Source: a virus. Taken from it: 15,173 nt of DNA. The stretch lies in the UHGV virus genome UHGV-0105671. The stretch is one strand, 5' to 3'. Shown here one piece after another: positions 4,748 to 7,424 of the stretch. Both the position numbers and the translations under genes were made by a program. The first letter of the stretch is position 1. Each line of letters begins with the position of its first letter. Under the pieces are notes generated by a model. It saw only the letters and a list, made by a program, of their open reading frames with translations. It searched no databases and was not told the DNA's origin.

Positions 4748-5070
4748 ACTTTCAGGCCTCTCTCATGTAACCAGTGAGCTGCACGCAGCCTGGCGTTCAC
4801 CTCACCGGCAAGCAGTGCGCGGATAATCCCGACCGCCTCGCTGTCGTCGTCCTTCACCGCGGTATGAAGCGTGATCCCCCGGGCCACGCCACGCTTTATC
4901 GTGATGACGCCTTTTTTCTCCAGTGCGCGAAGATGCTCCACCGCTGTATTCACTGAACGGTATCCCAGCATGGTTGCCACCTCCTGATTGGTTGGCGGGA
5001 AGCCACGTTCTTTCTGATAAGAAATCAGCATATCCAGCACCTGCTGCTGGCATTGAGTTAACGTCGTCAT
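4744..5070 (-). CDS. LexA N-terminal DNA-binding-domain-like winged-helix protein lacking the S24 peptidase domain
   Basis: 108 aa; MTTLTQCQQQVLDMLISYQKERGFPPTNQEVATMLGYRSVNTAVEHLRALEKKGVITIKRGVARGI parallels the LexA N-terminal domain (recalled as [58 protein letters not shown]). No Ser/Lys autoprotease region. ATGA coupling at both ends. Confidence 0.6.
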   Translation of the reverse strand: MTTLTQCQQQVLDMLISYQKERGFPPTNQEVATMLGYRSVNTAVEHLRALEKKGVITIKRGVARGITLHTAVKDDDSEAVGIIRALLAGEVNARLRAAHWLHERGLKV

Positions 5071-5720
5071 GCCGCCATCTCCCTGACCAGTTTTTCCGCC
5101 TGCTGGCGAACCTGCGCCAGAAACGCCTCACCACATGCCTCAAGTTCATCGCGCCCGATGTAGCTGATTGCCGGTCCCTTCCAGGTCTTGTCAAAAACAG
5201 CAATAGCACCAGCGAAAAAAGCTCCTGTCGGTACCTGCTTCTCGTCTTTCGGGATAAACCAGACAGGCAGTTCAAAACCAATACGCCCACGAATAAAAGC
5301 AATATGATCTGCATATTCCGGCCACCACACTTCGCTGGTGGCAGCTTTGATCAGGAAAACATAGCGCCCGCCCTTATCACGCATGGCACTGGCATGTTTC
5401 ATGATGTAACGCATGCCGGTGATGTATTGCCCATCATGTTGACTGGCGCGGCTGTATGGAGGATTACCAAAGGCAGCACCTTTAAGCCCCGCAAGGCGTT
5501 CTGACCAGTCATGCGCCAGCGCGTTGTCTTCCGCCGTGTAATACGCGGCACATTTGGCGTTATCACCGTCAGTGAACAGATCCAGAACAAACGGGCCAAA
5601 CAGGGTGTTAATTCCCCAGAAAATGTTGTCCGGCGTGCACCACTGATCACCCACTTCCTTCAGTTCATGGGCTGGTTTGTTCCGCAGTTCCACCAGCTCC
5701 TGGCAATATTTATTACTCAT
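5067..5720 (-). CDS. Phage-type DNA N6-adenine methyltransferase (Dam family), orphan
   Basis: Contains the FGNPPYS (NPPY) catalytic motif; 217 aa from ATG 5720, whose TAATG overlaps the upstream gene stop and is preceded by GGGGG. No adjacent restriction endonuclease gene. Confidence 0.8.
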   Translation of the reverse strand: MSNKYCQELVELRNKPAHELKEVGDQWCTPDNIFWGINTLFGPFVLDLFTDGDNAKCAAYYTAEDNALAHDWSERLAGLKGAAFGNPPYSRASQHDGQYITGMRYIMKHASAMRDKGGRYVFLIKAATSEVWWPEYADHIAFIRGRIGFELPVWFIPKDEKQVPTGAFFAGAIAVFDKTWKGPAISYIGRDELEACGEAFLAQVRQQAEKLVREMAA

Positions 5721-6208
5721 TAAGCCCCCACGTAATTCCCTGACAGATACCACTCATCACCCGATACAGCTCGCTTGCTGCTTTTCCGTAAGCACCGCTC
5801 ACGACGCGCCAGAAAATTGTTTCGTTCTGGCTGGGAGTGGCTTTCACGGAATGCCGCCATCCACACGGTTGCAGCACGACGGTATAAGCCCCTTGACTCC
5901 AGTTCTTCAGCCTGGCGGGTCAGGCACAAAATCACCCGGGGATCGTTAGTGCCGACATAGAAATTGCGCACAGGTCTGGTTTCACGAACTGGTTGTGGTT
6001 CCGGCTCCTGCGCTCTCTCAGTCAGGCGTGGGAAATGTCTGCGTGTATCTCCTTCACAACGGTGAGCCACACGCCCACTCTGACGTAACTTGCTTGCTGA
6101 CTGCAGAACGCGCTGCCGTGAGTAACCTGCAAAAGCATCCGCAACGTCTCCGGAAGTACACCCCGGATGGGCTTCAATGAATTTCTGAACTTCATTCAAA
6201 AGACTCAT
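5720..6208 (-). CDS. yfdN: YfdN-like prophage protein; C-terminal region resembles PerC-family regulators (tentative)
   Basis: 162 aa from ATG 6208 (AGGGGGTG Shine-Dalgarno, 5-nt spacer); the track GTG at 6214 gives 164 aa, the size recalled for K-12 CPS-53 YfdN. C-terminal GLYRRAATVWMAAF...ERNNFLARRERC is reminiscent of PerC-like proteins. Symbol rests on recalled size and gene order, not alignment. Confidence 0.45.
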   Translation of the reverse strand: MSLLNEVQKFIEAHPGCTSGDVADAFAGYSRQRVLQSASKLRQSGRVAHRCEGDTRRHFPRLTERAQEPEPQPVRETRPVRNFYVGTNDPRVILCLTRQAEELESRGLYRRAATVWMAAFRESHSQPERNNFLARRERCLRKSSKRAVSGDEWYLSGNYVGA

Positions 6209-6210
6209 GA

Positions 6211-7203
6211 TCACCCCCTGAATCCTACCGGGATCTGGCTGTAGTCCACGTTGTCGTAACTGGCTTTGAAGTACGGGTCTTCACGTTTTTCTGTGTGCGT
6301 GCTGACGGACGGCGATAAGCGCAGGGAAAGCTCATCCCATTTTTCCCGCAACTTCGACGGGCTGAGCACGTTACGGCACCAGAACGGATCACGGCTGACG
6401 CGGCTGTACATCTCGCAGATTTGTTTGTGAGTACGACCATCCTGCACACACATCAGGCGAATTTCGTTTGCCCATGCTGTCCAGTTCGGTTCTTTGGGAC
6501 GAACCACCTCGCCGTCACATTCGGCGGCCTGCTCGTACAGGGCGATGATTTTTTTCCAGAGCCACTGTGCGCAGGTCAAATCATCCTGCGTTCCCCACTG
6601 GCGCTTTTTAGGGCTGAATACAACCGCATCAGGATGGCGAGTTAAAAACTCCTGTTCAGCCGTTTGCGTGTCCGGTTGCGAAGCGTCCGGACGAGAAGAG
6701 GTTTTATTCTCTGTAGTAATCTCTGTTGTATTCTCTGTAAGATCATTGGGCCATTTTGACCCGATGACAGCGTGTCGTTTTGAACCAATGGATCGTGTCA
6801 TTTTGCGCCCATCCATCAGGTCACTTTGACCCGATGGAGAAGTGCATTTTGACCTGATGGATTCGTTCACTTTGACCTCTTCTAAAAGCTCACTTTCATA
6901 GTTGATCGTGTAGAAGTTGGTCATGTCACGCTTCGATTTATTGAGTTGCTCGCGACGCAAAACCCCAAGTGATTTCAGGCTTGCAAATGTGCGTTTCAGA
7001 GTGGACTCTGACCAGAACGGAAACTGCTCCAGCCACTGTTCTGTCGTGTTATAAACCCAGCGAATTCCGCCATGCTCAGTGCCTGAATTCGTTTCATTCA
7101 GCCAGTAATGAAGCTGCTGCAACACAATTGCCTCATTCAGACCAATACGGCATGCAAGATCACGATTTATCACAATGGGCTGGGATGTCATTAACAGGCT
7201 CAT
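6211..7203 (-). CDS. Replication initiator (functional analogue of lambda O) with internal iteron origin
   Basis: 330-aa ORF with GGAGG Shine-Dalgarno; located after the immunity region as for lambda O. It contains an array of about six ~23-bp-spaced direct repeats followed by an AT-rich tract (see repeat feature), mirroring lambda ori-inside-O. The repeats encode a reiterated peptide (…RSIGSK…VIGSK…). Confidence 0.6.
   Translation of the reverse strand: MSLLMTSQPIVINRDLACRIGLNEAIVLQQLHYWLNETNSGTEHGGIRWVYNTTEQWLEQFPFWSESTLKRTFASLKSLGVLRREQLNKSKRDMTNFYTINYESELLEEVKVNESIRSKCTSPSGQSDLMDGRKMTRSIGSKRHAVIGSKWPNDLTENTTEITTENKTSSRPDASQPDTQTAEQEFLTRHPDAVVFSPKKRQWGTQDDLTCAQWLWKKIIALYEQAAECDGEVVRPKEPNWTAWANEIRLMCVQDGRTHKQICEMYSRVSRDPFWCRNVLSPSKLREKWDELSLRLSPSVSTHTEKREDPYFKASYDNVDYSQIPVGFRG
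6701..6879. repeat. Candidate phage origin of replication: iteron array plus AT-rich repeat region
   Basis: Plus-strand direct repeats with core CAYTTTGACCYGATGG beginning near 6752, 6776, 6798, 6822, 6845 and 6868 (spacing 22 to 24 bp). Adjacent AT-rich segment 6701..6745 carries three TCTCTGT repeats at 12-bp spacing. Confidence 0.6.
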
Positions 7204-7424
7204 GCCGCACCTCCGAGATGCTTCATGTTTTTTCCGGAGCGAAAGGCTATAAGCGGCATACTGACGCGGTAATTACGGCCCAGCGGTTCACAAACCACCT
7301 TCTGACATTCACGGTCAACCAGGCTAACACGTAGAACATGCCCTGCAGGCGTGGTGTACCACTGACCCGGACGAGGACAACGGAAAGTCTGATTGGTAAA
7401 ACGTTTGAAAATATTCCGGATCAT
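7200..7424 (-). CDS. Hypothetical small protein (74 aa)
   Basis: ATGA overlaps with both flanking genes and an AGGTAAGGGGG Shine-Dalgarno upstream. No recognisable motif. Confidence 0.4.
   Translation of the reverse strand: MIRNIFKRFTNQTFRCPRPGQWYTTPAGHVLRVSLVDRECQKVVCEPLGRNYRVSMPLIAFRSGKNMKHLGGAA

Follow-up and report, generated by a model that had tools for sequence, protein, structure and literature searches.

A probable replication origin within the O-like initiator gene of a lambdoid Escherichia coli prophage, and a DnaT-like tail on the gene's product

The 15,173-nucleotide stretch of virus genome UHGV-0105671 analysed here, hereafter the window, carries on its minus strand a gene for a 330-amino-acid (aa) protein that matches PHROG 391, 'replication initiation O-like' (E = 4e-101), and inside this O-like gene lie two adjoining blocks of DNA repeats, six iterons followed by three tandem 12-mers, which we read as a probable replication origin situated in the gene of its own initiator. 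The family name comes from PHROGs alone; the whole 330-aa protein gave no match in Pfam, NCBIfam or PDB sequences. In outline the protein consists of an N-terminal winged helix, an origin-encoded linker, a C-terminal domain of lambda-O type and a DnaT-like tail (Table 1). An E. coli chromosome has the gene at 100% identity and phage mEp460_4F5 at 98%. Of 5426 complete E. coli genomes, approximately 1057 have a gene that covers 80% or more of it, and in the matching E. coli records that were looked at its product bears the RefSeq label 'hypothetical protein'. The gene sits within a lambdoid prophage's immunity and early-right region.

Repeats and domains of the O-like gene

A repeat search returned five 23-nucleotide copies at 6744-6859, spaced by 24, 23, 23 and 23, and a sixth copy of the core at 6861-6877, and the 23-bp array was found independently by Tandem Repeats Finder (TRF). 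Placed in the register of the gene, the six units occupy gene nucleotides 323-461 (window 6743-6881) at spacings of 23, 23, 23, 23 and 24 bp in gene direction, which bears out an earlier note, made from the letters of the DNA alone, that had described six repeats at about 23-bp spacing. The consensus of the iterons is a near-perfect palindrome, CATCGGGTCA-AAA-TGACCCGATG. The degenerate core pattern RGKTCAAARYGVMC gave four perfect matches and one with a single mismatch, all on the minus strand and in phase, within 6749-6878; elsewhere in the 15 kb its matches were scattered, with one or two mismatches each, and neither a perfect match nor a second iteron cluster was found.

The iterons are followed, still inside the 330-aa open reading frame (ORF), by the three 12-bp repeats that the earlier note had also placed there. 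On the gene strand these 12-mers read TACAGAGAATAC, AACAGAGATTAC and TACAGAGAATAA (listed also as TATTCTCTGTAG, TAATCTCTGTTG and TATTCTCTGTAA), and the pattern ACAGAGAWTA has three perfect matches in the window, all of them within this block. The AT-rich tract that had been reported at this place is real, although modest, with 67% A+T over 6700-6745 and 35% G+C over 6700-6759 against about 50% around it. By nearest-neighbour energy no other 30-50 bp of the gene are as unstable as the 12-mer block, which also belongs to the least stable 2-3% of the window. No Rfam family overlapped the origin. Taken as a unit, the repeats fall at gene nucleotides 323-499 of 993, between the part that encodes the winged helix (aa 1-105) and the part that encodes the C-terminal domain (aa 185-296).

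Table 1. Coordinates of the repeats, protein domains and neighbouring features in the window
Feature	Window position	Strand	Details
O-like replication initiator gene, 330 aa	6211-7203	minus	ORF list and translation
N-terminal winged-helix domain, aa ~1-105, presumed iteron-binding module	6889-7203	minus	
Six iterons, 23-bp units	6859-6881, 6836-6858, 6813-6835, 6790-6812, 6767-6789, 6743-6765	minus	gene register
Three tandem 12-mers, presumed DNA-unwinding element	6705-6740	minus	gene nucleotides 464-499
Mosaic junction	6704-6710		megablast match ends at query position 497 = window 6707
Lambda-O-type C-terminal domain, aa ~185-296	6316-6651	minus	BLASTP against lambda O
Disordered C-terminal tail, aa 297-330, ending YSQIPVGFRG	6214-6315	minus	
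74-aa ORF, directly upstream of the O-like gene	7200-7424		
pR-like promoter candidate TTGACC-17-TAGCAT, before the cro-like gene	9382-9410	minus	consensus scan only
cI-like repressor	9453-10079	plus	
Chi sites	2901, 3030, 3301, 4438, 5334, 5690, 8248, 8524, 8870		

The remark in the same note that the initiator could not be matched to lambda O proved wrong: residues 147-294 align to lambda O 135-270 with 33% identity (BLASTP, E = 1e-26), a conserved core is visible in an alignment, and a search among representatives of 50%-identity clusters gave 2682 relatives at E <= 0.001. The C-terminal domain is clearly homologous to that of lambda O, only the N-terminal DNA-binding domain being non-lambda, and the arrangement is therefore homologous to lambda's and not merely analogous. 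Pfam PF04492 (Phage_rep_O) gave no match at E <= 0.01, and the BLASTP alignment with lambda O excludes the N-terminal region; the Phage_rep_O test failed only because that model covers the N-terminal domain.

A full-length AlphaFold2 (AF2) model, built on a shallow alignment of 8 sequences, is of low confidence, with a mean predicted local distance difference test score (pLDDT) of 55 and weak fold matches. In this model aa 113-178, which the iterons and 12-mers encode, are disordered (pLDDT ~25), as are aa 297-330, and residues 183-296 are helical (pLDDT 60-83). For the N-terminal domain, which was modelled separately, the best fold match of the predicted structure was the N-terminal domain of the pSK41 plasmid RepA, suggesting a winged helix of the RepA_N or DnaD-N-terminal-like kind. 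At the level of sequence, RepA_N (Pfam PF06970) gave no match to the window protein and a profile of the N-terminal domain gave chance matches only against PDB sequences; Rep_3 (Pfam PF01051; the RepE, pi and TrfA type) likewise gave no match, a single winged helix and no tandem being predicted. We conclude that the protein is an initiator of lambda-O type whose N-terminal specificity domain has been swapped.

Conservation and exchange of the repeat block

The repeats could conceivably be a mere by-product of a repetitive linker of low complexity in the protein and be functionless as DNA. The stretch does encode the predicted disordered linker, the 12-mers always stand in one frame and give T-E-x-T repeats, and the 15-bp repeats of phage SfIV do yield a peptide repeat. 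The iterons behave otherwise, the six units being read, in gene order, in frames 1, 0, 2, 1, 0 and 0, and no single reiterated peptide results because the 23-bp period rotates the reading frame. A reiterated peptide had been claimed for the repeats as a whole; it holds for the 12-mers, which encode TENT-TEIT-TENK, and not for the iterons, which are read in three frames and of which just three out of six give I(R/G)SK. A linker by-product would also have to explain why the iteron consensus is a palindrome in DNA.

Conservation was followed in 27 non-redundant homologues, drawn from 80 IMG/VR loci and from phage loci. Over the coding part for the N-terminal domain, third-codon-position identity among them is 0.55-0.76, as is expected for a protein under purifying selection. 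At nucleotides 331-480, and in that stretch only, it reaches 0.80-0.90 and equals the identity over all sites, third codon positions being as conserved as first and second ones, which again speaks against a by-product of the linker. Conserved positions track the 23-bp register, and the core RGGTCAAARTGA and its phasing are kept throughout these homologues; the earlier note had named conservation in homologues as a test of its own proposal, and both the position of the repeats and the phasing of six copies are indeed retained. In phage HannyBb the 36-bp block of 12-mers is 100% identical to that of the window, whereas the gene overall is just 78% identical. Codon choice was also considered. The Thr codons of the 12-mers that lie outside the ACAGAG pattern are without exception ACA or ACT, ACC and ACG being absent, compared with a ratio of roughly 40:60 elsewhere, a test that is partly circular in that the block was located via ACAGAG, so that only codons outside the pattern count. 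This codon choice is fixed across hosts' versions of the gene from 34% to 58% G+C, a further point against the by-product explanation. As judged from these alignments, the constraint in the origin stretch acts on the DNA, and we give very little credence to the notion that the repeats merely follow from the protein.

The repeats are moreover exchanged between phages together with the domain that precedes them. SfIV-type homology to the window gene begins directly after the last 12-mer (mosaic junction in Table 1), and among the 27 homologues identity falls off sharply after gene nucleotide ~505. SfIV and SfII match the window gene at 97-98% DNA identity over the C-terminal half, and upstream of the junction both have a different N-terminal domain (Pfam HTH_36) with repeats of 15-bp period in the equivalent place; a third set of iterons, accompanied by two 12-bp repeats, is seen in Stx2a_1447 and Ayreon. 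Conversely, the window protein's N-terminal domain also occurs in front of other C-terminal domains (Phg_2220_C), and in every such case the iterons and 12-mers are the same. From the SfIV/SfII swaps and the Phg_2220_C fusions it follows that, in the genomes compared, N-terminal domain, iterons and 12-mers form one recombination module, which is how an origin with its cognate binding domain should look.

The distribution of the module extends well beyond E. coli. Over the N-terminal domain, phages of Klebsiella, Pseudomonas, Erwinia and Pantoea show 57-81% identity, and those of S. aureus, Bacillus and Listeria about 50%; these distant lineages came from the phage collection, the scan of viral contigs having given close relatives only (79-100% identical). 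In the Klebsiella, Pantoea and Erwinia phages the N-terminal domain is followed by 22-23 bp iterons with the core GGnCAAAnTGnCC and then by ACAGAGA 12-mers, and Staphylococcus phage 96 retains three such iterons but no more than a remnant of the 12-mers. N-terminal domain, iterons and 12-mers thus make up a portable specificity cassette, present in partial form in the Pseudomonas and Staphylococcus phages.

Copy number varies among homologues. Two loci (L061 and L063) have four or more 12-mers, at gene nucleotides 465-512, and five others (L075, L079, L086, L087 and L090) have just two perfect ACAGAGA copies, variation that is usual for tandem repeats. In one Logan contig (P0013) an in-frame deletion of 93 bp (~6766-6858) joins iteron 2 to iteron 6 with the loss of four of the six iterons, and may be either a real copy-number variant or an assembly collapse. 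A lambda-O-type initiator from the representative library (P0130) has yet another N-terminal domain and also has a TEITTETTTENK linker; because of this different domain, the ACAGAGA-type block may pair with more than one N-terminal domain family.

We put at roughly 0.85 the probability that a lambdoid (mEp460_4F5 / LLS / SfIV-like) E. coli prophage has its vegetative replication origin at window 6705-6881, within its own initiator gene. All comparative tests that were run support the proposal of the earlier note, namely an iteron-type origin inside the initiator gene on the logic of lambda's ori within O. The layout of an origin in an initiator gene is itself well known, and the departures from it are the loader-less context and the DnaT-like tail. 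Several points weigh against the origin reading. It is supported by comparison, and the homologues compared are phylogenetically related, with the contrast to flanking coding sequence of the same genes as the sole control for shared ancestry. No DnaA boxes were found near the origin, the A+T share of the 12-mer block is just 67%, and several intergenic regions of the window are less stable than it is. Finally, Pseudomonas phage AF has two 12-mers and a single recognisable iteron, so that copy number is not universal.

The repeats might instead be control sites, serving autoregulation, copy-number handcuffing or the exclusion of related phages, with the true origin elsewhere. Plasmid iterons act in copy control too, and, according to the parts of PMC3349717 and PMC4488673 covered here, cloned lambda ori fragments inhibit related phages. 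Such control roles would, however, add to an origin function and not replace it. Furthermore, the iterons of the window are directly joined to conserved low-stability 12-mers, in the order and gene position known from lambda, they travel with the DNA-binding domain as one recombination module, and the 15 kb hold no second iteron cluster. We therefore regard a control function with the origin at another site as unlikely.

If 6705-6881 is the origin, the palindromic iterons would be bound by dimers of the N-terminal domain and a bent nucleoprotein complex would result, by analogy with oriLambda (PMC7466680) and pSK41 Rep (PMC5703833), and transcription from pR through the origin would aid activation. 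The nucleoprotein complex would melt the adjoining 12-mer block, and the C-terminal part of the initiator would then recruit the replicative helicase. In a more speculative step, the DnaT-like tail would dock the initiator onto the host partner of DnaT's own tail. A smaller possibility is that the 12-mers TACAGAGAWTAC, which are kept in phages of several Gram-negative genera and as a remnant in a Staphylococcus phage, could be a sequence-specific unwinding or single-stranded-DNA-binding element, beyond mere A+T richness. As an origin the region matters chiefly for annotation, the 'hypothetical protein' of the E. coli records being a recognisable initiator with its probable origin inside its gene.

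The DnaT-like tail and the genes around the probable origin

No member of the P, DnaB or DnaC families was found among the ORFs of the window scanned with Pfam and PHROG, nor in 49 non-redundant ORFs downstream of related loci that bear the tail (2.4-3 kb), and the annotation of the viable phage SfIV, whose genome is complete, has none either. At its C-terminus the window protein reads ...YSQIPVGFRG and E. coli DnaT ...DSQIPPGFRG, the last nine residues matching at 8 of 9 (codons 6214-6240). According to hhalign the similarity is limited to DnaT 147-179 (probability 89%), and in the tail of HannyBb 14 of the last 20 residues are identical to DnaT (E = 9e-8). Across 105 clusters of DnaT orthologues the IPxGFRG ending shows essentially no variation, a ...GFRGAK variant is common to some DnaT proteins and phage tails, and IPxGFRG also ends O-like initiators with the unrelated Phg_2220_C C-terminal domain.

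To relate the tail to the gene that follows, 80 genomic loci with a lambda-O-type C-terminal domain (L096-L175) were tabulated. A lambda P homologue lies downstream in 45 of the 48 loci with lambda-type (NTDW..G..) or WNxxEAWE-type tails, and P, DnaB and DnaC are missing in 15 of the 17 loci with IPxGFRG tails, one of the two exceptions (L103) being followed directly by a homologue of phage DnaC. Another gene, a near-twin of that in the window (P0016), ends in ...DWNSADGWEDVL, and its next gene is Phage_lambda_P. Because no P, DnaB or DnaC homologue was found in the window or downstream of related genes, we put forward the hypothesis that the extreme C-terminus is a docking motif for a helicase-delivery factor, and that the DnaT-like form of this motif would give the initiator direct use of host machinery. 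The most likely partner of the tail would be DnaB-DnaC, with PriA or PriB as alternatives. Extended to the 'O-only' lambdoid phages, the idea is that they dispense with a loader by means of a DnaT-tail copy that docks the origin-bound initiator on a host factor, most plausibly DnaB-DnaC; we offer this tentatively, as a possibility that we rate as less likely than not.

Certain observations count against such a role. The tail hypothesis rests on co-occurrence across loci that are not independent lineages, and the window protein's C-terminal domain did not match the Pfam DnaT model PF17948 even at E <= 1; E. coli DnaT itself matches that model at 3.7e-21. There might also be an unrecognised loader without similarity to known ones, for which the 74-aa ORF and the N-terminal 100 aa of the PerC-like protein are candidates. 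The notion that the whole C-terminal domain is DnaT-like, as the RAST label 'Primosomal protein I' would have it, was considered and rejected, the similarity being confined to the last ~30 residues of a protein whose domain is lambda-O-type; the label on phage records reflects the tail only.

According to the part of PMC12315714 covered here, a sole O homologue is encoded by 34 of 314 lambdoid phages, among them LLS and mEp460_4F5, which it names as a relative of LLS, and in 2025 it called the replication of this class 'not yet understood'. On the host side, DnaT residues 154-179 are absent from crystal structures (PMC4132743), and the recruitment of DnaB-DnaC by the DnaT-containing preprimosome is stated as an open question (PMC13377028). 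The literature searched, with subscription journals outside it, holds no description of the GFRG tail or of the iteron set of the window. In the tail that phage and host share, mutually exclusive as it is with a P gene, there is a short, mutable motif that bears both on helicase loading in O-only phages and on the DnaT preprimosome. If the hypothesis were true, the same short motif would be the missing link from the PriA-PriB-DnaT preprimosome to DnaB-DnaC in replication restart.

The lack of a loader gene in the window would also fit a decayed origin in a cryptic prophage that has lost this gene, a scenario to which the P0013 variant without four iterons and the truncated related gene next to yfdN in the cryptic prophage CPS-53 of E. 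coli K-12 lend some colour. On the other hand, the ORF of the window is intact and 98% identical to the mEp460_4F5 gene, and purifying selection is visible on both protein and DNA. SfIV and SfII, which are isolated phages with complete genomes, moreover have the one-gene module, and within the part of PMC12315714 covered here it is reported for the plaque-forming LLS and 34 of 314 lambdoid phages. In the light of these points decay appears quite improbable, and a working origin in a one-gene module remains the reading that we prefer.

Pfam and PHROG scans gave the gene order cI / cro / cII / Rha-type regulator / 74-aa ORF / O-like, and after the O-like gene, in order, PerC-like, Dam, LexA-like, RusA, KilA-N, HNH and a Q-like antiterminator. 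Transcription of the rightward operon from the pR-like candidate in Table 1 would cross the origin. The O-like gene overlaps each of its neighbours by 4 bp, at the stop of the 74-aa ORF (7200-7203) and at the start of the PerC-like gene (6211-6214), which suggests translational coupling along the operon. The latter gene, of the YfdN/PerC family (5720-6214, minus), comes directly after the initiator, in the slot of P in lambda, and matches of the N-terminal ~100 residues of its product are limited to PHROG families of unknown function.

Other features of the window were recorded in passing. GATC sites lie at 6741, 6791 and 6904, in or adjoining the origin, in a number not clearly above chance, and the prophage's own Dam methylase gene is at 5067-5753, 0.5 kb downstream. 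Nine Chi sites (GCTGGTGG) occur in the 15 kb against 0.68 expected from shuffles. Rfam matches on the minus strand comprise a C4 antisense RNA at 8021-8108 (68 bits) and an isrK Hfq-binding RNA at 8133-8209 (60 bits). Because both RNAs fall inside a mechanically called 382-aa ORF (7421-8569), the true start of the Rha/Ash-type antirepressor gene is probably downstream of these two, as it is in P1/P7-type immI and Gifsy isrK-anrP loci.

Comparison with known systems

The placement of the presumed origin midway along the initiator gene is shared with lambda, where oriLambda is within gene O, and with the Stx phages 933W and P27, which have six iterons. Lambda, 933W and P27 resemble the window in having 4-6 dyad-symmetric iterons at 20-24 bp spacing, a promoter-distal A+T tract, an acidic linker and the C-terminal domain (PMC7466680). 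Lambda treated with the same tools gave four iterons at 20-24 bp and then an A-rich tract, collinear with the repeats of the window. Further likenesses are the homologous C-terminal domain, the operon order cI / cro / cII ... O, and an N-terminal domain that is specific to type on a C-terminal domain that is common. The differences are these: the iteron is GGTCAAAATGACC in the window and TCCCTCAAAACGAGGGA in lambda, the A+T tract of the window consists of three 12-mers, the window is without a P gene, its N-terminal domain is not Phage_rep_O, and its protein has a DnaT-like tail where lambda O ends in ...NTDWIYGVDL.

Rep of pSK41, a RepA_N protein of Gram-positive plasmids, likewise has its Rep boxes central in the rep gene; there the linker between the N- and C-terminal domains is dispensable and is encoded by the ori DNA, and in pPR9 the N-terminal domain and the ori were exchanged together as a module of ~500 bp (PMC5703833). 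The disordered, origin-encoded linker of the window protein parallels this dispensable one. Unlike Rep, the window protein gave no sequence-level match to RepA_N or to the PDB and has a C-terminal domain of lambda-O type, and host range, phage context and iterons also differ. The replication modules of Eru-type Stx phages (PMC8044961), considered as a further parallel, proved different, with an SF2 helicase in Eru1 and a DnaB-domain protein in Eru2 and Eru3. With DnaT the window protein shares its C-terminal ~20-30 residues; it differs in having no match to the DnaT three-helix bundle (PF17948) or N-terminal domain, and no PDB sequence match. The passages of Zheng et al. (Genome Res 2025) on O-only modules that are covered here contain no description of an origin or of a tail. 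It is with these modules, represented by LLS and mEp460_4F5, that the window belongs, sharing with them its richness in Chi sites, and its gene being 98% identical to that of mEp460_4F5, an O homologue without a helicase or loader.

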